A stretch of 64,000 nt of DNA, taken from contig JABLWZ010000011.1 of the NCBI GenBank assembly GCA_013178275.1, positions 89,422 to 153,421 of the forward strand, written 5' to 3'. The position numbers and the translations under genes are program-made. Source of the DNA: Bacillota bacterium (GTDB taxonomy: Bacteria > Bacillota > Ch66 > Ch109). Positions 2,290-23,802 of the stretch are shown in pieces. Position 1 is the first letter of the stretch. The number at the start of each line of letters is the position of its first letter. The notes beneath the pieces were generated by a model. The model made no database searches. It saw only the letters and a program-made list of their open reading frames with translations, and was not told where the DNA came from.

Positions 2290-2498
2290 AAAGTATGAAA
2301 AAGGTTTCTGGTGGAGCGGGTAATGCAGTCCCTTTGGCCCCGGTACTGACAGAACCCTGATAAACCCGCTGGATTGATTAAATTCCGACCTTCTATGTTT
2401 CCATAAAGCAGTGCCTCGAATCGTTCTGATCCTTATCACGATTATACATAATAATAATTTAATTAAGGGAAAATAGAAAAAAGACTTCGGAAGGGAAT

Positions 2499-3047
2499 AT
2501 GTATCAGCAGCTAGCCTACAATCCAATTAATGATCTCAATGTGCAGGCCTCACTGGCCAGAATCATGTTTTGGCGGGAAAACACTCTTTTCACCTGGCAG
2601 TGGTGGCTCCTATTAGCTGTAGTTGCGGTGTCCGCTTTAATATGGTGGCGTCTGGTTGACAGGAGCCGGCTGCTGGAGATAGTCTGCTACGGAATACTGG
2701 GAGCCGTTCCGGCAATGGTATTCGATATCACTGGAACTATGCTCGGATGGTATGCCTACCCGATCCTGCTGCAGCCCTATTACCCCGGTACCATATTCGG
2801 GATCATAACCCCGGCGATTATTGGCATGCTAATATACCAATACTTCCCCTCCTGGCGGGGCTTCCTCATCACGGTGACTCTGGCCTCAGCCGTGCTTTCT
2901 TTTACAGGGCAGCCGCTTCTTGCCTATATCGGGGTCTATAAGATCTACAATTTCAGCTACCTCTACTCGTTCCTGATTTTCATAATTATTGCTGTATGGG
3001 ATAAATGGACGGTAGGAAAGATGAAATCGGCAAGAACTGGTTATTGA
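2499..3047 (+). CDS. small polytopic membrane protein (CBO0543-like, tentative)
   Basis: 182-aa ORF with about 5 hydrophobic helices and Trp-rich loops. The family name is recalled from memory only. Confidence 0.5.
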   Translation: MYQQLAYNPINDLNVQASLARIMFWRENTLFTWQWWLLLAVVAVSALIWWRLVDRSRLLEIVCYGILGAVPAMVFDITGTMLGWYAYPILLQPYYPGTIFGIITPAIIGMLIYQYFPSWRGFLITVTLASAVLSFTGQPLLAYIGVYKIYNFSYLYSFLIFIIIAVWDKWTVGKMKSARTGY

Positions 3048-3409
3048 CAATCTCTTACAATAAAATTTGGATTCAACTGTCTTAGTATCAAACAGATCCC
3101 TCTGCTTCTTAATTCTACCTAACAGCTTCCTCGCTTTCCCCCTTTTCAATAAAAAGCGGAACGAATGCCATCCCGCCAGTCTCCAACCGGGAGAAGGCAT
3201 GCCAGGTTTCAACAAAAGAACCTTGATTTCAGCATAATTCGCTAAAGGATAAATGTCATTATACATCAAATATATTATAAACATCAAATTCGGAATTGTT
3301 AGTATAGTCAATCGATTTAAAATCGACCGGAGAACATCAGTGTTGCAAAAGAGGCTTAAAACAAACTAAAGTTGGAGGCAAATGCATTCAGACAGAGATA
3401 GGCTGGCTT

Positions 3410-5443: not shown

Positions 5444-5690
5444 TCGAAGGAACTGTAAATCCAACCGGCCTGAAGTGGGCTGTTTCTCATTTGAATTTTT
5501 ATATACTTTTTCTTAATATATCCCATACATTTTAAAATCATATTTGTTATTCTAATACGAAGAGAGTTGCTGATTATCGATTCTAAAAAAAGTAAAAACA
5601 TAATATTAAAATTTTAATTGGGCCTTCATGGGGTCTAATTTAATTTTCATCTTAATCTTAATCTAAATTTAAAATCACTACGCCGGGGAA

Positions 5691-6650
5691 ATGATGAAGG
5701 ATACAAGCAATTTATATATAAAAAGAAAAAACCGAAGGAAGACAAGAAGGAAAAGAAGAAGGACCCGGTGGTACCGGAGGCTACGGTTGATATTGATAAT
5801 CGTTGTTATCGTTTGCTTGTGCAGATCGATTAATAACCGATACCTAAATATCCAGAACACGGATCCCGTTCAGTCTTTGTTAGTCAATACCGGTACCCAG
5901 GGCGATTCGAGGGCGGTAGATGCCTTAAAAATCGAATTGGAGAATTATATTAAGAATTACAAAGGACAGTACGGCATTTACTACTACAATATCGTCACCG
6001 GGGAGGAGTTCGGGATCAACGAAGCTGATGAATACACGGCCGCCAGCACGATAAAAGTGCCTTTAAATCTTTACCTCTATAATAATATTAAATCAGGGGC
6101 CGTTGATCCCCAGGGAACAATAAAGTATTTGAAGGACGACTACGAGGGGGGCACCGGCAAGATACAGTACGAGAAAGTCGGAAATACCTATACTATCGAT
6201 GAATTATCAAAATTCTCCATAGTGTTGAGTGATAATGTGGCTGCCAACATGCTGATAAGGTTTTTAGGGATAGATAACATCAAACAGTATATGAGACAGG
6301 TTGGCGGTGTGGTGGTGCAGGACGGGCAAAACGTTTCATGCCCCAAGGACATGGGGCTTTATATGAGACTGGTGTATGAATTCAGCAGCAGAGAGGGAGT
6401 GCTTGGCCAGCAACTGATGGATTGTTTCCTGAACACCCAGTTCAATGATATGATACCCGCTTTACTCCCAACAAATATTAAAGTGGCGCATAAAATCGGG
6501 AATCAGGTCGGGGTTGTCAACGATGTGGGAATCGTATTTTCAGATAGGCCCTACATCCTGGCCGTCATGTCCAAAGATGTGGATGAGAAAGAGGCTGCAA
6601 CGGTTTTACCCATTGTTTCTAAGAAAGTCTTTGATTATGCAACCAATTGA
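5691..6650 (+). CDS. membrane-anchored class A beta-lactamase-related serine hydrolase
   Basis: Contains an SxxK motif (AASTIKVP), an SDN motif (VLSDNVAAN) and a KTG-like motif (AHKIGN). The N-terminus is a hyper-basic tract followed by one TM helix. Confidence 0.7.
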   Translation: MMKDTSNLYIKRKNRRKTRRKRRRTRWYRRLRLILIIVVIVCLCRSINNRYLNIQNTDPVQSLLVNTGTQGDSRAVDALKIELENYIKNYKGQYGIYYYNIVTGEEFGINEADEYTAASTIKVPLNLYLYNNIKSGAVDPQGTIKYLKDDYEGGTGKIQYEKVGNTYTIDELSKFSIVLSDNVAANMLIRFLGIDNIKQYMRQVGGVVVQDGQNVSCPKDMGLYMRLVYEFSSREGVLGQQLMDCFLNTQFNDMIPALLPTNIKVAHKIGNQVGVVNDVGIVFSDRPYILAVMSKDVDEKEAATVLPIVSKKVFDYATN

Positions 6651-6692
6651 GACGCAAACTGAACTTTATCAACCTAAACTATTGTTGATTTA

Positions 6693-6720
6693 AAAAACCC
6701 GGTAGCCAAGCTACCGGGTT
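6693..6720 (-). terminator. rho-independent terminator downstream of spo0A
   Basis: Hairpin AACCCGGTAGC-ttg-GCTACCGGGTT followed by TTTTTTAA when read on the minus strand. It lies between the convergent genes ending at 6650 (+) and 6989 (-). Confidence 0.5.
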
Positions 6721-6988
6721 AAATATAGGGGTGGTGTAGGACTTCTTTCCGACTTAACTAATTATACGGAATTGGACTAGGCTTGGTTCTATCTTGGTTC
6801 GAAAAAATAACTGGGGCTCCATCTGTTTAGCCAGGAAGCTGGCGGCGGTCCCTGCCGCTTCAGTTCCATACCGCCCGGTTTAATTCCTGGTCTTTAGGTA
6901 TATGAATTACAGTCGCGTATATAATTATAAATCCTATGTCACCTTGGATGTCATTGGATTAATAGGATACGGACTTGTATATAAAGAC

Positions 6989-7774
6989 CTAGCTCACCTT
7001 CAACCCGGTTCGTAGTTTATCTGCGATCAGGGCTATAAACTCCGAATTGGTCGGCTTACCCTTTTCCACGTTAATGGTATAGCCGAAGACCTTATTCATC
7101 AATTCAACGTTACCGCGGTCCCAGGCCAACTCGATAGCATGCCGAATCGCCCGCTCCACCCTGCTGGAGGTAGTCGTGTTTTTCGCGGCGATCATCGGGT
7201 ACAGCTCTTTGGTCACCGCTCCGAGCAGATTGAAATCTCCGACCACTAAAAGAATAGCGTCTCTCATGTATTGATAGCCCTTAATATGCGCGGGTACTCC
7301 CAACTGGTGAATTATTTCAGTAACCTCTAGGTCCAGGTTTCTGGTTTTCAGTGTTCGCGGGACAATAACCTGGTGCCTATTCTTCAGTTGGCGCAACCGA
7401 TTACCCAGAACCTCTATATCGAAGGGTTTTAATATATAGTAATCAGCGCCAAGCTCTACCGCCCGGTGCGTCATATTTTCCTGGCCGAAAGCCGTAAGCA
7501 TGACGATCTTGGGTCGGGTATCGGTATTTTCCTGGGCCAGTCTTTCCAGAACCCCGACACCATCCAGCTGCGGCATTATAATATCCAGGATCACGATATC
7601 AGGCTGTTCATTACTTATTAGACTTAAAGCCTCAATACCATTATGGGCTATACCGACTAATTCAAAGTCATCTTGCCCAACCAAGTATTCCTTGAGTATC
7701 TCGCAAAACTCCCTGCTATCATCTGCGATAAGCACCCTAAATTTCCCCATGCTGGTATAATCCTCCTCAGTCAT
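6989..7774 (-). CDS. spo0A: sporulation master response regulator Spo0A
   Basis: Receiver domain residues are present ([35 protein letters not shown]). The Spo0A-specific C-terminal domain motifs are present ([51 protein letters not shown]). Confidence 0.95.
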
Positions 7775-8200
7775 TTTTTACCGTGACATTCCCAATTCGA
7801 CGGATGGAAGGCTAATCCTCTATCGTATTTTGTAATATAAAAGGAGAATATGTCTGAGTGAAATTAAGAGAATTGATGAAAGGGATTAAGCTGGTAACAC
7901 CAGGAATAGTAAGCGGAAACGAAGAAGACAATGAGGCTGTCGTCTGATTTTTTATACCGTTGAACTGGCGGGGAGGATAAAGAGAAGGCCATTATAGGCC
8001 TCCAACTGCCTGACCATGCACCTAAAATCTATAAAAACAGTAAAAATCGCCAATAACCACCAAAACAATCCATATTTTTACATATTTCGTTGCAGGATAT
8101 ATATGGTTCTACATCAAATGTATCAAAGTCACTAATTGAGCAATTATAAAAAGGTTAGCATCATTTCCTGTAATGCAACTGAATAGGAGGAAAAATCGCA

Positions 8201-10819
8201 GTGGAAATTGCAGAAAAGACCCACGACCAACTCCTGGCTGAAAACAATCAACTGCGGCAGCAACTCGCCTTGTATGAAGAGCAGGCCAATATTGTAGATG
8301 CTCCAACTAATGGTATGGGTGTAACCGCTGAGTATTACGAAGCGCCGATATGGGTGACCGACCTTAAGGCCAAGAGGTTAAGGAAGACTCGAAAAAACGA
8401 ACTATTTGGTGACGATGGTAAAATAATCGATGCAATAGCGGCTTTCGAGGACATCAGCGAACGCATCCAGGTACAGGAATCCCTGCAGAAGGAGCGCGGG
8501 ATATTAAGAGCCGTGATCGAGAACACCGAGACGCAGCTGGTATATCTCGATCCGGAGTTCAACTTCATCTGGGTGAACTCGGCTTACGCTAAAGGGTGCA
8601 GGCGCCCGGTCGAGGATTTCATTGGCAGAAACCACTTCGAACTGTTTCCCCATGAAGAAAACGAGGCGATATTCCGTAAGGTGTGCGATACCGGTAAACC
8701 TATACTTTTCAAGGCCAAACCCTTCGTACACCCGGATCGACCCGAACAGGGGGTTACATACTGGGACTGGATGCTGACCCCCATCACCGACTGTTTCGGA
8801 AAGGTTACCGGACTCGTTCTCTCGCTTACCGACGTCACGGAAATGGTGCGCACCGAGGAAACACTGCGAGAGACCAAGGATTATCTTGAAAACCTTATCA
8901 ACTACGCCAATGCTCCAATTATTGTATGGGATTCGAATTTTAAAATAATTCGTTTTAACCGGGCTTTTGAACGTTTGACCGGTTACAGCGCAGATTATGT
9001 CCTGGGCAGATCACTGGAAATTCTCTTCCCGGACGACCGTAAGAAGGAATCCATGGATATTATCGGCCGAACAGCATCGGGGGAATACTGGGAGGTGGTG
9101 GAGATACCTATCCTCCAAAAAGGAGGAAATGTACGAATTGTACTCTGGAACTCGGCGAATATCAGTGATGAATCAGGAAAAATCGTGGCGACTATAGCCC
9201 AGGGGCAGGACATCACTGAACGAAAAATCGCAGAGGAATCTCTGCGCAAGAGCCAGCAGCGTGATGAACTCCTCTCCACAGTTGCTAGCCGTCTCTTGTC
9301 CAGTGAGGATCCGCAGGCCATCATCGAGGAACTTTGCCATAAGACCATAGACCATCTGGGGTGCGACGTCTTCTTAAACTACATGGAGGATAGGGAAAAA
9401 GGCTATCTGCACCTCAATGCCTGCACCGGGATTCCCGAGGATGAGGCTAGAAAGATCGAATGGCTTGACTACGGAAGCGCGGTATGCGGATGTGTAGCTT
9501 TGGAAGGACAGCGTATCATAGTCGAGAACATCTCCGAATTCCATGATCCAAGGACTGACAAAGTCAGGACCTACGGTATCCTGGCTTATGCCTGTTATCC
9601 CTTGAAGATGATAGATAGGGTTATCGGCACCATCTCCTTTGGTACTCGTTCCCGATCCAGTTTTACGGATGAAGAACTGGTGGTGATGAAGAGCGTAGCT
9701 GATCAAATAGCTATCGCCATGAGCCGCCTCCTGACAACCCGGCAGTTAAGGGAGAGCGAGGCCAGGCTGGAGGAACTGGTAAGGGAGCGAACCCGGGAGC
9801 TATACGACTCAAACCAGAGAATGGTTAAAACGGTTGAGAGTATAACTGATACTTTTTTCTCTCTCGACCGGGAATGGCTGGTAACCTATTGGAATAGAGC
9901 GGCCGAAGATATGTTTGATTTAAAGCGAGAAGAAATACTGGGAAGGAATTTCTGGGAGGTATTTCCCAGGGCGGTCGAGTCGGAATTTTACACCCAGTAT
10001 CGTCTTGCTATGCGCTTAAACAATCCGGTTAATTTTGAGGCTATGGAAGCCCACACCGGCCGATGGGTGGAAGCCCGCGCTTACCCCTCCCAGGTTGGGC
10101 TTACGATATACTTGAACGACATCACGGAACAGAAACGATTAGGTGAAGAAATCGCCCGCTTAGACCGCTTAAACCTGGTTGGCGAAATGGCGGCTTCTAT
10201 CGGCCACGAGATAAGGAATCCGATGACCACTATCCGGGGATTTTTACAGATACTGGCTTCTAAAAAGGGCTGCCAGCTTTATAGAGAATACTTTGACCTG
10301 ATGATTGAAGAACTGGACCGGGCGAATTCTATTATTACCGACTATCTAAGCATGGCTAAGGATAAAGCGGTCGATATGAATCCAAGATATCTCAATTCGA
10401 TAATCAGAACCATCCACCCCTTGATCCAAGCGGACGCGAATTACTCTGACAAGCAGGTGAGGCTGGATCTGGACTTACCGCCAAAGCTGCTGCTTGACGA
10501 AAAGGAAGTCCGCCAGCTGATTTTGAACCTGGCCCGCAATGGCCTGGAAGCCATGGGACCAGGGGGTATACTCACCATCAGAACCCATGTGGAAAACAGC
10601 GAGACGGTACTGGAAGTAGGGGACCAAGGCTCTGGGATTCCGCCGGCGATGATGGATAGGCTGGGTACGCCATTCCATACCACCAAGGAGAACGGGACCG
10701 GCCTCGGCCTAGCCGTCTGCTACAGTATTGCCCATAGACACAACGCCAAGATCGAGGTGGATACCGGGCCCGAGGGGACGACGTTCAGGGTCAGGTTCAA
10801 ACCGAATAGTGATCCTTAA
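8201..10819 (+). CDS. PAS-PAS-GAF-PAS sensor histidine kinase (paralogue 3 of 3)
   Basis: GTG start. GAF-like block (..CDVFLNYMEDREKGYLHLNA..GTISFGTRS..). RLEELVRERTREL linker shared with kinase 1. Same H-box LDRLNLVGEMAASIGHEIRNPMTTIRGFLQ and ATPase boxes as the other two kinases. Confidence 0.85.
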   Translation: MEIAEKTHDQLLAENNQLRQQLALYEEQANIVDAPTNGMGVTAEYYEAPIWVTDLKAKRLRKTRKNELFGDDGKIIDAIAAFEDISERIQVQESLQKERGILRAVIENTETQLVYLDPEFNFIWVNSAYAKGCRRPVEDFIGRNHFELFPHEENEAIFRKVCDTGKPILFKAKPFVHPDRPEQGVTYWDWMLTPITDCFGKVTGLVLSLTDVTEMVRTEETLRETKDYLENLINYANAPIIVWDSNFKIIRFNRAFERLTGYSADYVLGRSLEILFPDDRKKESMDIIGRTASGEYWEVVEIPILQKGGNVRIVLWNSANISDESGKIVATIAQGQDITERKIAEESLRKSQQRDELLSTVASRLLSSEDPQAIIEELCHKTIDHLGCDVFLNYMEDREKGYLHLNACTGIPEDEARKIEWLDYGSAVCGCVALEGQRIIVENISEFHDPRTDKVRTYGILAYACYPLKMIDRVIGTISFGTRSRSSFTDEELVVMKSVADQIAIAMSRLLTTRQLRESEARLEELVRERTRELYDSNQRMVKTVESITDTFFSLDREWLVTYWNRAAEDMFDLKREEILGRNFWEVFPRAVESEFYTQYRLAMRLNNPVNFEAMEAHTGRWVEARAYPSQVGLTIYLNDITEQKRLGEEIARLDRLNLVGEMAASIGHEIRNPMTTIRGFLQILASKKGCQLYREYFDLMIEELDRANSIITDYLSMAKDKAVDMNPRYLNSIIRTIHPLIQADANYSDKQVRLDLDLPPKLLLDEKEVRQLILNLARNGLEAMGPGGILTIRTHVENSETVLEVGDQGSGIPPAMMDRLGTPFHTTKENGTGLGLAVCYSIAHRHNAKIEVDTGPEGTTFRVRFKPNSDP

Positions 10820-10995
10820 TGCAATGAAAATATAGCTGATTATATTGTATTGCCATAGGAGATAATTCCTGAAGTACCGGAACTAAAACATTGAATTTTA
10901 GATAGTTGCGTAAGGAGACAGATTCATGTAAATTAAATATAGAGTGAAAATACATTGAAAAATTAGTTAACGCAAGACCTGGAGGACTGAATAAA

Positions 10996-12267
10996 GTGAA
11001 AGACAAAGAAAAAACCAAGCAGCAATTAATAGACGAGATAGTGAATTTGAGGGAGAAAAATCTTAGATTAGAAAACCTGGTTGAAATAAATAAAAGAATC
11101 AAGCAGGTTATTGGCATAAATTCCTTTAATGAGATATTGGATAACATTCAGGAACCCGTGATTATAACCAATAATCAGGAGTCCACCACTGAGCGAAAAC
11201 CAAAAGAACAAGAATTGGTTAAACGCGAAGTTGAATTTGCGACAAGAAAGGCTCAGCAAAAGATCATACGCCTTAAAAAAGTGGCGGCCCAACAATTAGG
11301 ATTAGAGGAAATCGGGTTTTACTCAGAATCTATGAGCCAGATATATCAATTATCACAGAGATATTATCTGGACCGGTCGATACCAGTGTTGATCCAGGGA
11401 GAAACCGGGACTGGAAAGGAAATAGTCGCTAAATTGATACACTATGGAGACCTGAAAGAAATGGACCAGCCTTTCGTCGATATAAACTGCGCTGCTTTAA
11501 GTCCCAGCCTGTTTGAAAGCGAGCTTTTTGGTTACGAGGCCGGGGCCTTCACGGGCAGCCTGGCAAAAGGGCAGAAAGGCAAGTTTGATATCGCCGATGG
11601 CGGGACTATTTTCCTGGATGAAATCTCTGAACTGCCTCTAGAACTGCAGGTTAAGCTGCTGCGTGTGATTCAGGAAAAACAGTTTTACCGGGTAGGCGGG
11701 CTGAAAAAGGTCAAGGCTGATGTCAGAATCATCTGTGCGACGAATAAGGACCTGAATCAGGCTGTAGTGGAGGACAAGTTCAGAGATGATTTGTATTACC
11801 GGCTTAAAGTAGGGTATATAAACATACCCCCTTTGAGGGAACGAAAAGAAGATATCCTGCCTCTGGCGAGAATGTATCTTCAAGAGTATTCAAGGCAAAA
11901 AGGGAAGAGTTTTCAGGAGTTCGACCCTAAAGCTGCCGATATTCTTTTATCCTATGCGTGGCCGGGGAATATCCGGGAATTGAAAAATGTTATTGAGGTG
12001 TCTGTATTTATGCATAACGGGATAAAGCTAAAACCAGAGCATCTCGAGTTTGTATCCCACTGCGAGGATAGGATGTGCAGGAAAACCGAAATACAATGTC
12101 CGGAGGCTATAAAAAAACCGTACAATAATCTGGTGGACGAGTTGTTGTTCAGAACGCTTGAAGAGAACAAAGGCAATATTTCGAGAACTGCAAGGGCCTT
12201 AGGCATAAGTAGAAATACAGTCTACAAAAAAGTTAAGGAATACAAAAACGCACCGCTCAAAAATTAA
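10996..12267 (+). CDS. sigma-54-dependent transcriptional activator (bEBP) with coiled-coil N-terminus
   Basis: AAA+ Walker A GETGTGKE. GAFTGA-type loop ESELFGYEAGAFTGS. Walker B GGTIFLDEI. WPGNIRELKN. C-terminal Fis-type HTH (GNISRTARALGISRNTVYKKV). The first ~115 aa are heptad-like, with no REC/PAS/GAF motifs seen. RBS GGAGG 9 nt before GTG. Confidence 0.85.
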   Translation: MKDKEKTKQQLIDEIVNLREKNLRLENLVEINKRIKQVIGINSFNEILDNIQEPVIITNNQESTTERKPKEQELVKREVEFATRKAQQKIIRLKKVAAQQLGLEEIGFYSESMSQIYQLSQRYYLDRSIPVLIQGETGTGKEIVAKLIHYGDLKEMDQPFVDINCAALSPSLFESELFGYEAGAFTGSLAKGQKGKFDIADGGTIFLDEISELPLELQVKLLRVIQEKQFYRVGGLKKVKADVRIICATNKDLNQAVVEDKFRDDLYYRLKVGYINIPPLRERKEDILPLARMYLQEYSRQKGKSFQEFDPKAADILLSYAWPGNIRELKNVIEVSVFMHNGIKLKPEHLEFVSHCEDRMCRKTEIQCPEAIKKPYNNLVDELLFRTLEENKGNISRTARALGISRNTVYKKVKEYKNAPLKN

Positions 12268-16330: not shown

Positions 16331-17293
16331 CTATAGCTTTTCTGCTAATGCGATATGCTTCCGAATCACCGTACAGGATTCATCGAATAGCTTTTGTTCC
16401 TCTGCGGTTAAATGCAGCTCTACTATTTCCTCTATACCGTTTTTCCCAATAATTGCCGGCACACCAGCATGTAAACCGGTTTGGCCATACTCTCCCTCCA
16501 ACCCGGCGGATACCGGCATGACCCGATATTCATCATGAAAAACAGCCTTGACCATATCGGCAAGTACAGTGCCGATACCGAATTCCGTGGACTGTTTTCC
16601 GTTTATGATATCCATGCCGATCGTGCGGGTACGGTGTAAAACCTGCTCTAAATCCAGCCCGCCGTAAACATCGGGTTTTTCCTTCATTAACTCGAATAAG
16701 GGCTTGCCGCCGACACTAAAATGGGAAAACGGTATCATGCTGGAGTCGCCGTGCTCTCCCATGGAGAAACACTGCAGACTTCTGGCGTCTATCCCAACTG
16801 CTTCCTGAAACACCCGCTTAAGACGCGCGGTATCTAGGGAGGTGCCGGTACCAAACACCCGGTGCCTGGCCCACCCGGTGTGTTTTCTCATGTAATCAGC
16901 GATGACATCGGCCGGATTCGATATACAGATTAAGACACCTTTGAATCCCGAGTTTTTTAACGGATCGACGATATCCTTCATTACCCCGATCGAATCACCC
17001 ATGGTGTCCAGCCGGGTCTGCCCCGGTTTTCTTGGTACTCCTGCCGCTAAAACAATTATCGCGGCATCCCGGCAGTCTTCATAATCACCGGGCCTTATTA
17101 TGACGGGATGAGGCATGAAACCCGCTGCATCCGCTATATCACCGGCCTGCGCCGCAGCCTTTGGCCGGTCTATGTCGATAAAAACGATCTCGCTCGTATC
17201 CCCCTGGGTCATTAAAGCGTATGCGCAGTGCGAGCCCACGTGGCCGGCGCCAATGATAACAATTTTTCTTGGCTTGATAGTATTAGAGATCAG
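16331..17293 (-). CDS. L-2-hydroxyacid dehydrogenase of the LDH/MDH family
   Basis: GEHGDS, ISNPAD and GTSLDTARL motifs are present. The Rossmann loop KIVIIGAGHVGS is encoded upstream of the GTG (17239) used in the ORF track. The frame is closed by TGA at 17300-17302. The only plausible starts are CTG 17293 or ATC 17290, behind RBS AGAGGTG. Confidence 0.8.
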   Translation of the reverse strand: MISNTIKPRKIVIIGAGHVGSHCAYALMTQGDTSEIVFIDIDRPKAAAQAGDIADAAGFMPHPVIIRPGDYEDCRDAAIIVLAAGVPRKPGQTRLDTMGDSIGVMKDIVDPLKNSGFKGVLICISNPADVIADYMRKHTGWARHRVFGTGTSLDTARLKRVFQEAVGIDARSLQCFSMGEHGDSSMIPFSHFSVGGKPLFELMKEKPDVYGGLDLEQVLHRTRTIGMDIINGKQSTEFGIGTVLADMVKAVFHDEYRVMPVSAGLEGEYGQTGLHAGVPAIIGKNGIEEIVELHLTAEEQKLFDESCTVIRKHIALAEKL

Positions 17294-17516
17294 GTATATT
17301 CACCTCTTTCGAATTGATAGTCTATAATGCCAGCCGCTCAAAGGCGGGCATGGTATTAATTATACTATACAGCGGTGTCCGGCGTCAGCTTTCCGAAACG
17401 TGACCGGGGCGGGGGCCGCTTATTCGAACCCCTAGGCCTACAGGCCATGCCAATAGTGGATCTGGAGCGGCAGAGCGGGTGGATATTGATGCTCCAATTA
17501 ATTAAAAAATCAGACA

Positions 17517-17545
17517 TTGACAAAACATGGCCAAGTGGGTATATT
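17517..17545 (+). promoter_or_regulatory. sigma-A type promoter of the T-box leader
   Basis: TTGACA (17517-17522), 17-nt spacer, TATATT (17540-17545). Confidence 0.6.
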
Positions 17546-17570
17546 AGATGAAACAATTTAAAATTATAAA

Positions 17571-17814
17571 GGCATTGACGGAGAGAGTACGTTTCAGCCG
17601 AACGTTGCAGCGAGCCGGGGGCGGTGCAAGCCCGGTACCAGTAGTCTGAACCAGGAAAATCACTCCTGAGCTGCGGACCGAACGAGTAATCCAGTAGGCT
17701 CCGACGGTTTCCCCCGTCACCGGGAACGCATATGATGGTATGTTTGTTTAATGGGTGGTACAGCGAATGTCTTTCAGGCTTTCGTCCCTTTGCGGACGAA
17801 AGCTTTTTAATTTT
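17571..17814 (+). promoter_or_regulatory. T-box leader, predicted specifier AUC (Ile)
   Basis: Stem I elements: TTGAC..CTGAGC GA motif, AGAGAGTA, distal GGTGCAA. The 3' side of the specifier loop is GGAAAAUCA followed by CUCC, which pairs with GGAG. T-box sequence AATGGGTGGTACAGCG at 17750-17765. Terminator GCTTTCGTCC-ctttgc-GGACGAAAGC plus TTTTTAATTTT at 17778-17814. Confidence 0.8.
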
Positions 17815-17834
17815 AATGACTGGAGGATAGGGCA

Positions 17835-18419
17835 ATGGCGACTAATGGTATGGTAGAAATCCGCTGGCACGGCCGGGGCGGACAGGGAGCCAAGGTAGCC
17901 TGCCTGCTGCTGGCGGAAGCGGCTGGTCTGGGAGGAAAATTCGTGCAGGGATTCCCGGAGTATGGACCGGAACGCATGGGGGCCCCTATAACGGCTTATA
18001 ATCGCATCAGTGAAAAACGGTGTACTATCCATTCCAACATTTACTACCCGGACTATGTGGTCGTGATAGATGAAACTCTGCTGGACAGCGTCGACGTCAC
18101 CGGAGGACTGAAAGAGGACGGCGCGATAATCATCAACACCCCCAGCTCTCCCCGGGAGATGCGTCCCCGGCTGCGGGAATGGACCGGAAAGGTCTGTACC
18201 ATAGATGCCCGCCGCATCTCGGAAGAGACCCTGGGCAAGAACTTACCGAATACCCCTATGCTGGCCGCTGTGGTCAAGGTGAGCGGCGTTTTGGAGACCG
18301 GGCGTTTTTTAGTGGATATAGAAGAATCCTTCAGACATAAATTTGCTGATAAACCCCAGGTTATCGAGGGAAACATGGCAGCACTGAAAAAATCCATGGA
18401 GGAGGTGCAGGTAGGATGA
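17835..18419 (+). CDS. 2-oxoacid:ferredoxin oxidoreductase, gamma subunit
   Basis: 194 aa. N-terminus (EIRWHGRGGQGAKVACLLLAEAA) is typical of the POR/VOR gamma subunit. It overlaps the next gene (ATGA). Confidence 0.9.
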   Translation: MATNGMVEIRWHGRGGQGAKVACLLLAEAAGLGGKFVQGFPEYGPERMGAPITAYNRISEKRCTIHSNIYYPDYVVVIDETLLDSVDVTGGLKEDGAIIINTPSSPREMRPRLREWTGKVCTIDARRISEETLGKNLPNTPMLAAVVKVSGVLETGRFLVDIEESFRHKFADKPQVIEGNMAALKKSMEEVQVG

Positions 18420-18724
18420 TTCAGGCGAAGGATATCAACGAACGTACCCCATGGCAGGACCTGACCCCCGGCGGGGAGATTTACGAACCAGGAACCGCAC
18501 GGGCCTTCGATACTGGTACCTGGCGGACCAACACGCCGGTCTTTCATGAGGAGGCATGTAAACACTGTATGCTGTGTGTTCCATTCTGCCCGGACTGTGC
18601 TATCCCGGTGAAGGACGGGAAGCGTCTGGACTTCGATTATATGCACTGCAAGGGCTGCGGCGTCTGTGAGAAGGTGTGTCCCTTCCCGGCGATCACGATG
18701 GTGACTGGAGGTGCGGCCAGATGA
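18416..18724 (+). CDS. 2-oxoacid:ferredoxin oxidoreductase, delta (2x[4Fe-4S]) subunit
   Basis: 102 aa with two ferredoxin Cys clusters (CKHCMLCVPFCPD, CKGCGVCEKVCP). Confidence 0.9.
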   Translation: MIQAKDINERTPWQDLTPGGEIYEPGTARAFDTGTWRTNTPVFHEEACKHCMLCVPFCPDCAIPVKDGKRLDFDYMHCKGCGVCEKVCPFPAITMVTGGAAR

Positions 18725-19911
18725 GCAACCGCCTTTCCGGCAACGAGGCTGTAGCCTATGCCTTGAAGCAGATTAATCCTGATGTCATGGGAGCGTTCCC
18801 TATCACCCCCTCCACAGAGATTCCCGAGTATTTCGCCGGTTATGTGGCTAACGGCGAGGTAAATACCGAATACGTCACCGTGGAGTCCGAGCACAGTTCG
18901 ATGTCCGTGTGCATCGCGGCGCAGGCCGCGGGAGCCAGGGCTGTCTGTGCCACTTCATCCTGCGGCCTGGCACTGATGTACGAGCTTTTATACGTAGCGG
19001 CTTCATGCCGGCTGCCGATCACACTGGCCTGCGTCAACCGGGCCCTTTCAGGGCCGATCAACATAAACAACGATCACTCTGACTCTATGGGGGCCCGTGA
19101 TAGCGGCTGGATCCAAATCTATGCCGAGAATAATCAGGAGGCCTACGATAATTTTCTTATGGCTATGCCTATCGGCGAGACCCCCAGCGTGCGCCTGCCG
19201 GTGATGACCTGTATGGACGGCTTCATCACCAGTCATGCCGTAGAGAATATAGAGCTTTTGGAGACGGATGTCGTGCGCGGGTTCATCGGGGAATACAACC
19301 CTGAAAACTACCTGCTGAAAAAGGAGAACCCGCTGGCGATAGGACCGTACGACGTGAGTCCCTATTACATGGAACACAAGGTCCAGGAGGCTGAGGCGAT
19401 GAAGGCGGCCAAGGCCCGCATTCTGGAGGTGGCCGCGGAGTTTGAGAAGATCTCCGGCCGGCGCTACGGCCTGTTTGAAGAATACCGGATGGAGGATGCC
19501 GAACTCGCTCTGGTTCTAATCGGGTCCACTGCCGGAACCGCCAAGGCGGCGGTCGACAAGCTGCGGGAGGATGGGGTAAAGGCCGGGCTCGTTAAGATCA
19601 GGGTATTCCGTCCTTTCCCGGGCGAGGAACTGGCCCGGGCTCTGGCCAGCACCAAGGCCGTGGCTGTCATGGATAAGTCCGAGGGCTTTTCGGCAAACGG
19701 GGGTCCTTTATTCGCAGAGACCCGCAGCGCCCTGTATGACCTGAAGGAACGCCCGTACCTGATCGATATCGTTTACGGTCTGGGCGGCCGTGATGTAAAG
19801 ACCGAGGACATTGAAAAAGTGTTCGGCCGGCTGGCGGATATCGCTGCGACCGGCGAGACTGGACCGGTGTATACCCATATGGGGCAGAGGTCAAAGGAGG
19901 AGAAGGCATGA
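18721..19911 (+). CDS. 2-oxoacid:ferredoxin oxidoreductase, alpha subunit
   Basis: Start ATG 18721 overlaps the delta stop (ATGA), giving MSNRLSGNEAVAYALKQINPDVMGAFPITPSTEI, which is typical of PorA/VorA. The 45-nt longer ORF-track start is rejected. Confidence 0.9.
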   Translation: MSNRLSGNEAVAYALKQINPDVMGAFPITPSTEIPEYFAGYVANGEVNTEYVTVESEHSSMSVCIAAQAAGARAVCATSSCGLALMYELLYVAASCRLPITLACVNRALSGPININNDHSDSMGARDSGWIQIYAENNQEAYDNFLMAMPIGETPSVRLPVMTCMDGFITSHAVENIELLETDVVRGFIGEYNPENYLLKKENPLAIGPYDVSPYYMEHKVQEAEAMKAAKARILEVAAEFEKISGRRYGLFEEYRMEDAELALVLIGSTAGTAKAAVDKLREDGVKAGLVKIRVFRPFPGEELARALASTKAVAVMDKSEGFSANGGPLFAETRSALYDLKERPYLIDIVYGLGGRDVKTEDIEKVFGRLADIAATGETGPVYTHMGQRSKEEKA

Positions 19912-20846
19912 GCACGGTGTATAACCTGAAACAGGAAGTAGAAAAGCCGCCCCGTCTCACCGGAGGGCATCGACTCTGCGCCGGCTGCGGCGCCGGGGTC
20001 GTTGTGGCCGGGGTTCTGCGTGCTCTGGATAAAGAGGACCGGGCGGTGGTAGTCAATGCCACCAGCTGTCTGGAGGTCTCCACCTTCATGTACCCTTACA
20101 CCGCCTACATGGACAGCTATATCCATTCGGCTTTTGAAAACTCCGCGGCTACCTGTTCCGGAGTGGAGGCGGCGTATAACGCCTTGAAACGCCGCGGCAA
20201 GGTGGAAGGAACCGTCAAGTTCATTACCTTTGGAGGTGACGGCGGCACCTACGATATAGGGTTTCAATCCCTGTCAGGCGCTATGGAACGCGGCCATGAC
20301 ATGGTCTACGTCTGCTATGACAACGAGGCCTACATGAATACCGGAATCCAGCGTTCGTCTTCGACGCCTCATTTCGCCCGCACGACTACCACGCCTACCG
20401 GTTCTGTGGCGCAGGGTAAGAAACAGAACAAAAAAGACCTGACTGAAATTATGGTGGCTCATAATATCCCTTATGCGGCTCAGACCGCCCCGCTGGGCAA
20501 TTTCAGAGATCTGCACGCCAAGTCTCATAAGGCTATCTATACCGAGGGCCCCTGCTTTTTGAACGTACTGTCCCCCTGTCCCCGTGGATGGGACTACCCC
20601 ATGGAGAGGCTCCCGGAGATCGCCCAGCTGGCGGTGGATACCTGCGTCTGGCCCCTTTACGAAGTAGAGGAGGGGGTGTGGCGTCTGAGCTATAAACCGA
20701 AGAAAAAGCTGCCCGTGGAAGACTTCCTCCGCCCTCAGGGCAGGTTCAACCATATGTTCCAAAAGGGCAATGAGTGGATGCTCGAAGAAGCGCAGCAGTA
20801 TATAGATCAAAAATGGGAACGCCTGCTGGAGCGCACCGGCGCCTAA
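19908..20846 (+). CDS. 2-oxoacid:ferredoxin oxidoreductase, beta (TPP-binding) subunit
   Basis: CAGCG Cys motif. TPP-binding region GGDGGTYDIGFQSL..CYDNEAYMNTG. Confidence 0.9.
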   Translation: MSTVYNLKQEVEKPPRLTGGHRLCAGCGAGVVVAGVLRALDKEDRAVVVNATSCLEVSTFMYPYTAYMDSYIHSAFENSAATCSGVEAAYNALKRRGKVEGTVKFITFGGDGGTYDIGFQSLSGAMERGHDMVYVCYDNEAYMNTGIQRSSSTPHFARTTTTPTGSVAQGKKQNKKDLTEIMVAHNIPYAAQTAPLGNFRDLHAKSHKAIYTEGPCFLNVLSPCPRGWDYPMERLPEIAQLAVDTCVWPLYEVEEGVWRLSYKPKKKLPVEDFLRPQGRFNHMFQKGNEWMLEEAQQYIDQKWERLLERTGA

Positions 20847-20915
20847 ACCTCTGGCTGAGACTGGGAATGGGTCCAAAATGTATGGTATGATAACGTTAGC
20901 AAGGAGGTTTTGCCC

Positions 20916-21824
20916 GTGGAGCAGACAATGTTTACCAATGAGGTTATTTTATCCTGGCTCCAGTATTTTTCACAGAACGTTGAGTTCAACCTGGCAAAAC
21001 TGAAGATGCTTGACATTACCGGGAAGAATAAGAACCTGATCCCGACCATTATGAGCAATCGGGCGGTGATGGTCTTTACGGACGCCGGGCATCCGAATAT
21101 CTTCTACGACATGTGGAATTCAGACCTGGGGGACTGCGAAATCTGGTACAATGAGGGTTCGGACCCTTCCGGCGAGATCAAGCACGACAAGGTTTCAAAC
21201 ATGATCAACCGCGGGATCAATGCCTCCGCGGCTATGCTGATCCTGAATCCCGGCGCTGTGACCAACTATCAGATCGGTATAGAGAACAGCCGTTTCTCCT
21301 GCGGTTCTGTTCAGTATGTGTGCCGGGAAGTTCGGGCTGTTATAATGAACAAGCTCAACCTGGGGGACCAGGACAATATATGTATAATCTCGGGTGAGAG
21401 CATCGCGGTGGAGGCCGCCATGATCGCCGCCGAGGGCAGTGTTATCGCTGTGGAATACGACCCCCGAGACCGGTGTACCATGAAAGAGAATATAGAGAAG
21501 TTTGGACTGAGCAACGTAACGATCGTTGAGTCTCTGAATAATGGTATCCTGGATAAGCTGCCGGTGCCGGACATAGCGTTTATAGTGGCTTCCCCGAGGA
21601 TCGACAGTGAAATAAAGCGTCTGCTGGCCATCAATCCAGCCATGAATTTTGTCATCTACACGCTGGACTTCGAAATGCTGACTTCTCTTCCTGCCCGGTT
21701 TCGGGAAAACGGCCTGGAGCGCACTGAAGCTATCCATATAGCGGTATCCCGGGTCAACAGCAAAAACATGGTGGAGCCATTCCCAGCTCCCTGGCTGATC
21801 TCCGGCAGAAGCGTTAAAGGATAG
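20916..21824 (+). CDS. CbiT-like methyltransferase-fold protein with degenerate SAM loop and unknown N-terminal domain
   Basis: The C-terminal ~170 aa align by eye to precorrin-6B methyltransferase CbiT (..GSVIAVEYDPRDRCTMKENIEKFGLSNVTIVE.., ..AVSRVN..PWLISG). The expected D-x-G-x-G-x-G loop reads IISGESIA. GTG 20916 fits RBS AAGGAGG better than TTG 20910. Confidence 0.5.
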   Translation: MEQTMFTNEVILSWLQYFSQNVEFNLAKLKMLDITGKNKNLIPTIMSNRAVMVFTDAGHPNIFYDMWNSDLGDCEIWYNEGSDPSGEIKHDKVSNMINRGINASAAMLILNPGAVTNYQIGIENSRFSCGSVQYVCREVRAVIMNKLNLGDQDNICIISGESIAVEAAMIAAEGSVIAVEYDPRDRCTMKENIEKFGLSNVTIVESLNNGILDKLPVPDIAFIVASPRIDSEIKRLLAINPAMNFVIYTLDFEMLTSLPARFRENGLERTEAIHIAVSRVNSKNMVEPFPAPWLISGRSVKG

Positions 21825-21929
21825 TTGATAACGCTGCGGTCTGGATAAGGCTGGCGCCGGATGATTTATTAAAGGGACTGTGGTTTCGGCCCGGTACCTT
21901 CATCTTCACCAAAATAAGAGAGAATGCTT

Positions 21930-21962
21930 AAACAACTACTCGTTTTTGAGTAGTTGTTTTTA
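21930..21962 (+). terminator. rho-independent terminator of the oxidoreductase operon
   Basis: AAACAACTACTC-gttttt-GAGTAGTTGTTTTT. Confidence 0.75.
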
Positions 21963-21976
21963 TTCAATGCAGATCC

Positions 21977-22151: not shown

Positions 22152-22985
22152 ATGAGGATAGAAGTAAAAAACGAGTTCTCCTATATACTATTTTTTTCGG
22201 TTATCCTGTTGATTCTTATGGATGTAAGCGTAACTGTACGGGTTGCCTTGGGTGTGCCTTTTGTCCTGTTTTTTCCCGGGTATACCTTAATAGCAGCCCT
22301 GTTTCCAGCCCGGGACGATCTCGACGGCATTGAACGGGTTGCCTTGAGCTGCGGTCTAAGTATAGCCGTGGTACCGCTTCTAGGTCTCATCCTGAATTTC
22401 ACCCCGTGGGGAATAAGGCTTTACCCCATCCTGCTGACGCTTTTGTTTTTCATGCTACTGCTGTCCATTATTACAATCCACCGAAGAAATAAACTTACTC
22501 TCGATAAGCGCTTTGTGGTTGCTTTAAACGTTAAAATAATAAAATGGAGCGACCTTTCAAGAATGGACAAAATTCTCTCGGTGGCGCTGGCGGGAGCTGT
22601 TATTTTTGCGGCCGGAAGCCTTTATTACGCCTCAGCTACACCAAAAGTTGATGAGAAATTCACCGAGTTTTACATGTTGGGTCCAGGCGGGAAGGCAGAG
22701 GGTTACCCCCGGGTTATGAAAACGGGTGAGGAAAAGGAAGTCATCCTGGGAACCGTTAACCACGAATACCGCCAGGTTTCCTATTCCGTCGAGGTGCGAA
22801 TGGATGGGGTTGTGATGACGCGACTAGGTCCTTTTAAAATAAACCACGAGGAAAAAAAGGAAGAGTCAGTTAGCTTCAGTGTTTATGAACCCCATGAAAA
22901 TCTGAAGGTAGAGTTTCTACTATTTAAAGACGGAGAGAGCGCCCCCTATCGATCCCTGCATTTGTGGGTGAACGTTCATGAGTAG
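22152..22985 (+). CDS. DUF1616-like membrane protein
   Basis: N-terminal 4-5 TM helices (..VALGVPFVLFFPGYTLIAALFP..DLDGIERVALS..) plus a C-terminal beta-rich soluble domain. The family name is from memory. Confidence 0.55.
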   Translation: MRIEVKNEFSYILFFSVILLILMDVSVTVRVALGVPFVLFFPGYTLIAALFPARDDLDGIERVALSCGLSIAVVPLLGLILNFTPWGIRLYPILLTLLFFMLLLSIITIHRRNKLTLDKRFVVALNVKIIKWSDLSRMDKILSVALAGAVIFAAGSLYYASATPKVDEKFTEFYMLGPGGKAEGYPRVMKTGEEKEVILGTVNHEYRQVSYSVEVRMDGVVMTRLGPFKINHEEKKEESVSFSVYEPHENLKVEFLLFKDGESAPYRSLHLWVNVHE

Positions 22986-23802
22986 ACTACGGGTACATAT
23001 CCAAATACATATCCCAAAATGGGATTTCGTTATCAAAAGTACTGTTTCTAATAAAGATCACTTTTTAATCTGGCTGTATGCGGCCGCTGTCACTGCCGCG
23101 GAAGTTGTCACGGCCTACTACAACCCGATTTACGGGGTCGCCGGTCACGTGGTTTTGCTGGTAGCCTTGCTCGTACACGCTTCCTTGGCTTATAAGCAAG
23201 CTATAAAACTGATTTATCTGTCTTTGTCCCTGGCTCCGATGATCCGGATCATGAGCCTTTCCATGCCGCTGATGGGCCTGCCGCCCATCTACTGGTACCT
23301 GATCATCAGTCTTCCGCTTTTTGTTACCGCCGCTTTGGTAATGCAGTATGCCGGTTTTAAGCCCCGGGAGGTCGGGCTGATTGTGGGTAACCTGCCCCTT
23401 CAGTTGCTGGTGGCGTTCATCGGGGTGCCGCTGGGCCTGATAGAGTACCTGATTTTAAAACCCACTTCCCTGGTGCCGGGGCTTGCCTTGCAGCACGCCT
23501 GGCTTCCAGCGCTGATCCTGCTTGTCAGCACCGGGTTTTTAGAGGAATTTATCTTTCGTGGGATTATGTATCGTGCGGCTGTGGAGACTTTAGGCAGGTG
23601 GTACAGCATTATCTATATCAGTTTCATATTCGGGGCGCTGCACATCACCCACCGTTCACCGGTAGAGCTGGTTTTTGTTTTTGCGGTGGCGCTTCTCTTT
23701 TCCATAATCGTTGACTTTTTCAGATCCCTTTTGGGTGTCTCCCTAGCTCATGGAATAACGAATATCAGTTTATACATTATATGGCCGTATTTTTTAAGCT
23801 GA
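22978..23802 (+). CDS. CPBP-family intramembrane glutamic protease (CAAX protease-like)
   Basis: EEFIFRG and FGALH motifs in a polytopic protein. The start overlaps the upstream stop. Confidence 0.8.
   Translation: MSRLRVHIQIHIPKWDFVIKSTVSNKDHFLIWLYAAAVTAAEVVTAYYNPIYGVAGHVVLLVALLVHASLAYKQAIKLIYLSLSLAPMIRIMSLSMPLMGLPPIYWYLIISLPLFVTAALVMQYAGFKPREVGLIVGNLPLQLLVAFIGVPLGLIEYLILKPTSLVPGLALQHAWLPALILLVSTGFLEEFIFRGIMYRAAVETLGRWYSIIYISFIFGALHITHRSPVELVFVFAVALLFSIIVDFFRSLLGVSLAHGITNISLYIIWPYFLS

Follow-up and report, generated by a model that had tools for sequence, protein, structure and literature searches.

Why should a T-box leader with an isoleucine specifier codon stand in front of the genes for a ferredoxin-dependent oxidoreductase? 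The question is raised by a locus of a Bacillota bacterium (GTDB lineage Bacteria; Bacillota; Ch66; Ch109; GenBank assembly GCA_013178275.1), located at positions 17517-21962 of the 64,000-nucleotide stretch of DNA that was analyzed here and is referred to as the window (contig JABLWZ010000011.1, positions 89,422 to 153,421 of the forward strand). A complete transcription-terminating T-box leader spanning 17566-17815 is followed in this interval by five genes that are predicted to be co-transcribed, namely those for the gamma, delta, alpha and beta subunits of a 2-oxoacid:ferredoxin oxidoreductase (OFOR) and a further open reading frame, ORF5. In T-box regulation, the expression of the downstream genes rises when the cognate tRNA is uncharged, and T-boxes are reliable reporters of the amino acid that is served by the downstream gene. 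Our data indicate that a tRNA-Ile T-box probably controls this POR-like operon together with ORF5, and that the enzyme probably acts as a synthase in the supply of isoleucine, its likeliest reaction being one that turns propionyl-CoA into 2-oxobutyrate.

The leader RNA and its specifier codon

The promoter and the leader of the operon consist of the following elements:

17517..17545, + strand: sigma-70-type promoter, TTGACA-17 nt-TATATT (consensus scan, 11/12 matches)
17566..17775, + strand: T-box leader with Stem I (K-turn, specifier loop, distal platform), Stem II, IIA/B pseudoknot, Stem III and the T-box/antiterminator 5′ strand (RF00230 match and covariation)
17659..17661, + strand: specifier codon AUC (isoleucine), followed by A17662 and the closing CUCC helix (Rfam covariance alignment)
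17750..17765, + strand: T-box sequence AAUGGGUGGUACAGCG with a UGGU bulge, predicted to pair with the tRNA 3′ end A73-C-C-A (direct read)
17776..17815, + strand: intrinsic terminator, 12-bp stem (17776-17805) plus T-run, mutually exclusive with the antiterminator (terminator scan)

The base of Stem I carries a K-turn (GC-AUUGAC-GGAG ... CUCC-UGA-GC), and the specifier loop is made up of AGAGAGUA on its 5′ side and GAAAAUCA on its 3′ side. The S-turn (AGUA/GAA), the codon, the single unpaired base and the closing helix were all present (UGAC-GGAG / CUCC-UGA, AGAGAGUA, GAA-A-AUC-A). The distal loop reads GGUGCAA, and the distal Stem I platform, which comprises an AG bulge and the distal loop, was kept across the alignment of related leaders described below (AGCGAG ... 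GGUGNAAG ... AGUA). The terminator, with a fold energy of −20.3 kcal/mol (z = −2.8), ends about 20 nt before the ATG of the gamma gene (17835), which is preceded by a GGAGG ribosome-binding site (RBS). TTGACA/TATA(A/T)T pairs similar to the promoter in the window were visible upstream of several related leaders. The promoter, the Stem I K-turn, the specifier loop, the GGUGCAA loop, the T-box sequence and the terminator were all found at the positions that a preliminary description of this DNA had given for them.

An Rfam scan of the whole 64-kb window at gathering thresholds gave no match to the T-box family RF00230. This result does not imply that a T-box is absent, because the leader scored 80.1 bits and the gathering score used for RF00230 was 93 bits. 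With reporting by E-value, the leader matched the full model (1-219 of 219) with E = 7e-18, and it was the sole RNA-family match in the window. Taken formally, the empty scan is one of the outcomes that the preliminary description had named as refuting it, but the match was obtained over the full length of the model by E-value, and failed only at the gathering threshold. Five orthologous leaders (L051, L055, L057, L068 and L069) had scores of 60-82 bits against the same model, all below 93 bits, which means that threshold-based annotation would miss this whole subgroup of T-boxes. Despite the sub-threshold score, we consider the identification of the leader as a T-box to be secure at the sequence level.

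Comparative evidence for the RNA structure was drawn from relatives of the alpha subunit, which are found at 72-96% identity in many Clostridia. Through these relatives 80 genomic loci were fetched, 74 of which had enough upstream sequence for the presence of a T-box to be assessed, and a homologous T-box was located directly upstream of the gamma gene in 66 of the 74. Forty diverse leaders were aligned, the canonical T-box structure was written from the Rfam alignment, and the pairs were counted explicitly. An RNAalifold consensus was discarded, having wrongly paired the 3′ strand of Stem I with the T-box sequence. In the canonical structure 96.0% of the base-pair cells were paired, compared with 39-48% when the 3′ partners were slid by 1-3 columns. 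Compensatory double changes were observed in 29 of the 46 pairs, and none of 500 shuffles equaled any of the observed measures of pairing or covariation.

Stem I, Stem II, the IIA/B pseudoknot, Stem III and the antiterminator were each supported by covariation. The closing helices of Stem I (helices 1-2) were 100% paired in the 40 sequences, with compensatory changes present, while the distal Stem I helix (helix 5) was 99% paired, with covariation in 4 of its 6 pairs. Among helices 6-10, compensatory pairs were seen in Stem II (5/6), pseudoknot IIB (4/4) and Stem III (3/6). The antiterminator helices 11-12 were 94-100% paired, and the pair formed by columns 227-269 was GC in 23 and AU in 14 leaders. 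The terminator, which was counted separately in the 40 genomes, had 95.2% of its cells paired and compensatory changes in 7 of its 11 pairs. Column 269 covaried with both of its mutually exclusive partners, which is the behavior expected of a switch. Control by transcription termination and antitermination, as had been claimed for this leader, is supported by this covariation of both the terminator and the antiterminator.

The specifier codon AUC was invariant in all 69 leaders in which it was read (67 tabulated and two more), with a 3′ side that reads GAA-N-AUC-N. Among the 67 tabulated leaders, the base preceding AUC varied (A47/G8/U8/C4), and the base following it was A54/C12/U1. Since the covariance alignment places AUC at the specifier position, the isoleucine assignment of the preliminary description stands, and so does the UGGU bulge from which it had predicted a discriminator A, as UGGU was found in 68 of the 69 leaders. 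Bacterial tRNA-Ile carries A73, which fits UGGU. The single leader with a different bulge, UGGG (L081:3837), retains AUC as its specifier and would mismatch discriminator A73.

The overlapping specifier frames AAU (Asn) and UCA/UCC (Ser) were considered and rejected on account of the variable first base and the discriminator. An NAU frame would read Asn, Tyr, Asp or His depending on the genome, and the only conserved frame is AUC. The serine and asparagine frames are excluded because the tRNA-Ser(UGA), tRNA-Ser(GGA) and tRNA-Asn(GUU) genes of the related loci encode a discriminator G73, which would need a UGGC bulge, whereas the bulge is UGGU. The leader thus appears to be a class-I, transcription-terminating T-box specific for tRNA-Ile(GAU), whose binding to it we infer.

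In its parts, the leader resembles the T-box leaders of Bacillus subtilis glyQS, tyrS and ileS, which share with it the Stem I K-turn, the S-turn specifier loop, the distal platform for the tRNA elbow, Stem II, the IIA/B pseudoknot, Stem III, the 14-nt T-box with its UGGN bulge and the opposition of antiterminator and terminator. The mechanism is presumably shared as well. When isoleucine is plentiful, charged tRNA-Ile would be unable to stabilize the antiterminator, the hairpin at 17776-17805 would form, and transcription would stop before the genes. Under isoleucine shortage, uncharged tRNA-Ile would pair through its anticodon with AUC in the specifier loop of Stem I and through its free A73-C-C-A end with the UGGU bulge. 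The antiterminator would then form, and RNA polymerase would read through into the genes for gamma, delta, alpha, beta and the CobL-derived ORF5. The oxidoreductase, a reversible enzyme, would run in the synthase direction, in which an acyl-CoA, CO2 and reduced ferredoxin yield a 2-oxoacid that feeds isoleucine synthesis. An enzyme that is induced by isoleucine starvation should raise the supply of isoleucine and hence work in this direction, and the anabolic role in reductive carboxylation that had been proposed in place of a catabolic one is implied by the regulatory logic of T-boxes, from which we infer the direction.

The oxidoreductase and its substrate

The four subunits of the oxidoreductase are encoded by overlapping genes downstream of the leader:

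17835..18419, + strand: OFOR gamma subunit, 194 aa (TIGR02175 PorC_KorC, 209.8 bits, cut-off 81.1; Pfam POR)
18416..18724, + strand: OFOR delta subunit, 2x[4Fe-4S] ferredoxin-like, 102 aa (TIGR02179 PorD_KorD, 96.6 bits, cut-off 60.05; Fer4)
18721..19911, + strand: OFOR alpha subunit, 396 aa (Pfam POR_N and PFOR_II; motifs FPITPS and NRALSGPININNDH)
19908..20846, + strand: OFOR beta subunit, thiamine-diphosphate-binding, 312 aa (Pfam TPP_enzyme_C; motifs GGDGGTYDIG and CYDNEAYMNTG)

The true start of the alpha gene is 18721 and not 18676 as in the list of open reading frames, since the homologues are 396 aa long and cover 96% of the longer frame. These family and motif matches place the four subunits in the Por/Vor family of 2-oxoacid:ferredoxin oxidoreductases. 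The preliminary description had recognized the gamma, delta, alpha and beta genes correctly, but the operon that it described as one of four subunit genes has five genes, ORF5 having been overlooked.

The same description had proposed that the enzyme is a VOR-type branched-chain oxidoreductase, and it is on this point that the evidence departs from it. All four subunits gave higher scores with the Por than with the Vor models of NCBIfam. The alpha subunit scored 481.1 bits against the Por model (equivalog cut-off 550) versus 333.8 bits against the Vor model (cut-off 646), the beta subunit 357.5 bits (cut-off 405) versus 293 bits (cut-off 405), and the delta subunit 91 bits (cut-off 120) versus 68.6 bits (cut-off 166), while the gamma subunit scored 184.9 bits against the PorC equivalog (cut-off 270). 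The equivalog cut-offs were reached neither for the PorABCD nor for the Vor models. The nearest solved structure is a four-subunit pyruvate:ferredoxin oxidoreductase (PFOR), 9bt4, with E = 2e-94 for alpha against 9bt4_B and E = 2e-78 for beta against 9bt4_C, and the next nearest are oxalate oxidoreductase and then fused PFORs.

The substrate pocket is also that of the pyruvate enzymes. Residues T29, R107 and I115 of alpha and V57 and N144 of beta align to Thr31, Arg114, Ile123, Ile843 and Asn996 of D. africanus PFOR, of which we take Thr31 and Arg114 to contact the substrate carboxylate, Ile123 and Ile843 to form the methyl pocket, and Asn996 to lie at the substrate position. The five residues T, R, I, V and N are the same in 9bt4. 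The pocket motifs were invariant throughout the clade, with or without a T-box, and no pocket differences were found between the T-box and T-box-less copies. Only one position stands out as different from true PFORs: the residue that follows the pocket Ile is Asn, His or Ala, compared with Phe in 1b0p and Trp in 9bt4. A pocket of this kind would suit small substrates and could accommodate either pyruvate or 2-oxobutyrate. Residue-level alignments gave no signs of a pocket enlarged for 3-methyl-2-oxovalerate, although sequence alone is not decisive in this respect.

On this evidence, the most likely reaction would be the carboxylation of propionyl-CoA to 2-oxobutyrate, the isoleucine-committed precursor, with that of 2-methylbutyryl-CoA to 3-methyl-2-oxovalerate as the second option. 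Synthesis of 2-oxobutyrate is favored because it reconciles the PFOR-like pocket with a control that is strictly isoleucine-specific, and because this control also holds in gut Clostridia that presumably ferment sugars and would not require a pyruvate synthase. That propionyl-CoA is reductively carboxylated to 2-ketobutyrate on a physiological route to isoleucine has been documented (PMC7476758, citing Buchanan 1969, Monticello 1984 and Eikmanns 1983), and the passages of that article that were consulted name no gene for the route. In a 2026 study a generic PFOR (nifJ) performed the carboxylation of propionyl-CoA in engineered E. coli (PMC12879463), so that a PFOR-type site can carry out 2-oxobutyrate synthesis. 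Reduced ferredoxin is costly in Syntrophomonas (PMC5626996), and tight on-demand control of an enzyme that consumes it therefore makes sense in that organism.

Several observations weigh against this interpretation. The best family scores, being those of the Por-type models, favor pyruvate, and the pocket residues do not separate pyruvate from 2-oxobutyrate. In locus L041 a T-box-less copy of the operon directly follows the C-terminus of a phosphoenolpyruvate (PEP)-synthase-like gene, a position that also favors pyruvate. On the side of the RNA, the score of the leader in the window lies below the curated Rfam cut-off, and searches for tRNA genes in the 64-kb window and for tRNA-Ile in the related loci found none. 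Finally, ORF5 is left unexplained by any simple scheme of acyl-CoA carboxylation, whether the product is 2-oxobutyrate, 3-methyl-2-oxovalerate or pyruvate.

The enzyme might instead be a plain pyruvate synthase that forms pyruvate from acetyl-CoA and CO2, with the charging of tRNA-Ile standing in for the availability of building blocks derived from pyruvate, for instance as input to a citramalate pathway. Best matches to PorA, PorB, PorC and PorD, a PFOR as the nearest structure with the same pocket, and the gene order in L041 would all be expected of such an enzyme, and in fatty-acid oxidizers, Syntrophomonas among them, acetyl-CoA has to be the source of pyruvate. Control by a single amino acid, and strictly by isoleucine in 69 of 69 leaders, would nevertheless be a strange arrangement for an enzyme of central anabolism. 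The isoleucine-controlled cassette is also present in Oscillospiraceae, Agathobaculum and Butyricicoccus, which presumably live by sugar fermentation and obtain their pyruvate from glycolysis. In addition, every Por equivalog cut-off was missed, and the aromatic residue that follows the pocket Ile in true PFORs is replaced. A pyruvate synthase is thus considered unlikely.

The branched-chain proposal, in which a VOR-type enzyme would carboxylate 2-methylbutyryl-CoA to 3-methyl-2-oxovalerate for transamination to isoleucine, has the merit that isoleucine-specific control would match an isoleucine-specific product. A route from 2-methylbutyrate to isoleucine reportedly operates in rumen anaerobes and Clostridium sporogenes, and is said to go back to Robinson and Allison in 1969 and Monticello in 1984. 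The hosts of the cassette live in digesters and guts, where 2-methylbutyrate would be expected, and one source calls the copy in S. wolfei, whose alpha subunit is ABI68682 and whose ORF5 is ABI68680, a '2-ketoisovalerate ferredoxin oxidoreductase', a name for which no experimental backing was found. The proposal is difficult to reconcile with Vor scores below the Por scores for alpha, beta and delta, with a PFOR as the closest solved structure, and with a pocket identical to that of pyruvate enzymes and devoid of any sign of enlargement. A broad-range VOR would also serve valine and leucine, yet all 69 specifiers are for isoleucine. We therefore regard a VOR-type enzyme as improbable.

A second four-subunit oxidoreductase operon, 35-38% identical to the first, lies 2-5 kb upstream in two Gelria loci (L020:1111-4161 and L054:1177-4227). 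The pocket motifs of this paralogue differ (PWTLW and SCAVAS), and it probably has a different substrate.

ORF5 and the spread of the cassette

The fifth gene and the end of the operon are as follows:

20916..21824, + strand: ORF5, CobL/CbiET-derived protein, 302 aa (RBS AAGGAGG, GTG start)
21930..21964, + strand: operon-end intrinsic terminator, 13-bp AT-rich hairpin plus T-run (−16.1 kcal/mol, z = −6.4)

No terminator was seen between the beta gene and ORF5, and none of 200 shuffles folded as well as the hairpin at the end of the operon. ORF5 is named precorrin-6B methylase, CbiT or CbiET in the source databases. It matched no Pfam family above cut-off, methyltransferases included, and it fell below all CbiT cut-offs (TIGR02469, 41.5 versus 78.3 bits; PRK07402, 44.3 versus 219 bits). 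In an AlphaFold model (pLDDT 86.8, pTM 0.82), the C-terminal domain superposes on CbiT 3e05 with a TM of 0.86 (normalized to the target) and a root-mean-square deviation of 2.3 Å, and the top Foldseek matches were 3e05 and 2yxd. The model thus gives this domain a CbiT fold. The N-terminal alpha/beta domain of about 110 residues had no match in the PDB by sequence or profile.

A profile search of 1.84 billion representative proteins returned only two full-length clusters of the ORF5 type (at 50% identity). The next tier consisted of proteins of about 400 aa, to whose residues ~105-400 ORF5 aligned with its residues 13-298. ORF5 is collinear with residues 112-411 of P0392 (28% identity, E = 4e-32), a true CbiET in which both a TP_methylase and a class-I methyltransferase domain are found. 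It is without the first ~110 residues of the CbiE half and has no TP_methylase match, whereas P0392 and P0401 do match. The S-adenosylmethionine (SAM) loop of CbiT, IYDIGAGTGSVSVE, is replaced by ICIISGE--SIAVE, which is invariant within the ORF5 family, and class-I motif I (DIGAGSAS/IGAGTGS) aligns to IISGES, with a deletion of 2 residues and loss of the glycines. A true CbiET matches about a dozen Pfam methyltransferase families, compared with none above cut-off for ORF5. As read from these alignments, ORF5 is a descendant of CobL/CbiET in which neither SAM-binding motif survives, and SAM-dependent methylation by it is unlikely. A role as an active 2-oxoacid C-methyltransferase, for example in the conversion of 2-oxovalerate to 3-methyl-2-oxovalerate at C3, was rated low, as both SAM sites are eroded.

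Of the 69 loci that could be assessed, 52 contained ORF5, which was situated directly after beta in 43 (median gap 68 nt), directly upstream on the same strand in 8 and on the opposite strand in 1. The linkage holds in the T-box-less loci L040 and L041 and in the most divergent members of the ORF5 family. No second T-box was found before the upstream-located copies of ORF5, and no cobalamin genes were seen near ORF5. In the remaining 17 loci the oxidoreductase had no ORF5 within 7 kb, and most of these keep the T-box.

This association could mean that the oxidoreductase and ORF5 together perform an undescribed two-step route, in which butyryl-CoA is carboxylated to 2-oxovalerate, or acetyl-CoA to pyruvate, before an ORF5-dependent modification at C3, or that ORF5 is an accessory subunit for the synthase direction. 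The persistence of ORF5 through three gene arrangements and in T-box-less genomes, its strong constraint, with only the two full-length clusters, and its descent from a C-methyltransferase are in line with such a role, and an endogenous acyl-CoA substrate is attractive given that S. wolfei grows on butyrate or crotonate alone. With both SAM sites eroded, no Pfam methyltransferase match, 17 loci that keep a T-box-linked or homologous OFOR apart from ORF5, and no chemistry that can be derived from the sequence, we judge this explanation to be very improbable.

Clustering of 520 flanking open reading frames gave essentially no shared neighbors around the cassette, and the neighbors in cultured isolates are unrelated housekeeping genes. 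Since no conservation extends into the genes on either side, what is under selection is the cassette itself. At four-fold degenerate sites, the window had an identity of 0.6-0.77 with loci placed in different families, compared with ~0.2-0.3 for saturated comparisons. Together with the missing synteny, these values suggest horizontal spread among syntrophic and digester Clostridia, plus strong purifying selection. Metagenome-assembled genomes (MAGs) labeled Chitinophagales, Desulfosudis and Proteobacteria also carry the cassette, which suggests horizontal transfer or, for some of these MAGs, binning contamination.

Six loci had no T-box (L040, L041, L065, L067, L071 and L075). Two of them, from high-GC MAGs labeled 'Proteobacteria' (L040, 3216-3636; L041, 5450-5876), have the oxidoreductase and ORF5, and L040 keeps a remnant of the 3′ half of the T-box and the terminator. 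Two further loci have internally deleted remnants of the leader within 420 nt upstream of gamma (L032:5690-6112 and L039:2820-3242), in which the specifier region and most of Stem I are gone and the terminator is kept. In L032 the deletion additionally removes everything up to the T-box. As written, these two leaders would leave the operon permanently terminated or decayed. Insertions of 130-200 nt were found between the T-box terminator and gamma in L002, L006, L013 and L031 (and L004). In the DNA examined, these 5′-untranslated insertions were homologous to each other only and at that position only, which does not fit a dispersed repeat. No homology to them was seen in L023 or in other loci whose untranslated regions are long.

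The surroundings of the operon in the window offered no evident link to it. Upstream, at 259-12267, lie genes for three PAS-domain sensor histidine kinases, Spo0A and a sigma-54-dependent activator, and downstream, at 22152-23802, those for a DUF1616 protein and a CPBP-family intramembrane protease. A TrpX-type ABC transporter is a further neighbor, and no ilv genes were seen near the operon in the window. A gene for L-lactate dehydrogenase (16331-17300, − strand) is divergent from the T-box promoter. Its frame extends upstream through an intact NAD-binding motif, IIGAGHVGS, with no ATG, GTG or TTG between the in-frame stop and this motif; either the start would be non-canonical or the N-terminus is damaged.

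Relation to known systems and biological meaning

The leader differs from known T-boxes in what it controls, which is a ferredoxin-dependent oxidoreductase and a CobL-derived protein and not an aminoacyl-tRNA synthetase, a classical biosynthetic gene or a transporter. The oxidoreductase has separate subunits like 9bt4 and the PorCDAB enzymes of the archaeal-Thermotoga type, with which it has the motifs FPITP, NRA..PINI, CLEV and NEAYMNTG in common. It is set apart from them by the isoleucine riboswitch, the linkage to ORF5, the missed equivalog cut-offs and the Asn, His or Ala in place of the aromatic residue after the pocket Ile. With the VOR enzymes of Pyrococcus, Thermococcus and methanogens it shares the superfamily and the four-subunit layout, and VOR of methanogens has been proposed to work anabolically, in the synthesis of branched-chain amino acids. 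It differs from VOR in scoring lower with Vor than with Por models, in having no evident branched-chain-sized pocket and in being regulated by isoleucine only. ORF5, in turn, departs from CobL/CbiET (the decarboxylating precorrin-6B C5,C15-methyltransferase) by the absence of ~110 N-terminal CbiE residues, by the change of GxGxG to SGES and by its place in an OFOR operon.

The closest functional parallel is the '2-ketobutyrate synthase' activity, which uses propionyl-CoA, CO2 and reduced ferredoxin and is likewise isoleucine-specific, ferredoxin-dependent and anaerobic (PMC7476758). That enzyme is known as an activity only, with no dedicated gene found described, and our assignment of it to this operon is accordingly a proposal. 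The T-box survey of Wels (2008) does not mention oxidoreductases, and no report of a T-box upstream of por- or vor-type genes was found in the searchable literature, of which two key T-box surveys that may contain an earlier mention were not part. The T-box mechanism itself is well known; what appears to be new is the regulated module and the breadth of its conservation.

These findings have consequences for annotation. The database names 'pyruvate synthase', 'ketoisovalerate oxidoreductase' and 'precorrin-6B methylase' are probably misleading for the genes of the cassette, a conserved pseudo-methyltransferase partner has been brought to light in ORF5, and the subgroup of T-boxes to which the leader belongs is missed by threshold-based Rfam annotation.

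For the biology of these organisms, knowledge of the reductive-carboxylation route to isoleucine goes back to the 1960s, but solely in the form of an activity. An invariant isoleucine specifier before a POR-like enzyme in dozens of Clostridia provides a gene candidate for reductively carboxylating propionyl-CoA (or 2-methylbutyryl-CoA). As a more far-reaching and tentative suggestion, the cassette may be the dedicated genetic basis of this ferredoxin-dependent route, with ORF5 as a new functional component (an accessory subunit for the synthase direction or the enzyme of an undescribed step), and gut and digester Clostridia may turn short-chain fatty acids into isoleucine on demand by means of a horizontally spread module. 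Short-chain fatty acids abound in guts and anaerobic digesters, and our results suggest that they are channeled into the synthesis of amino acids under the control of a riboswitch.

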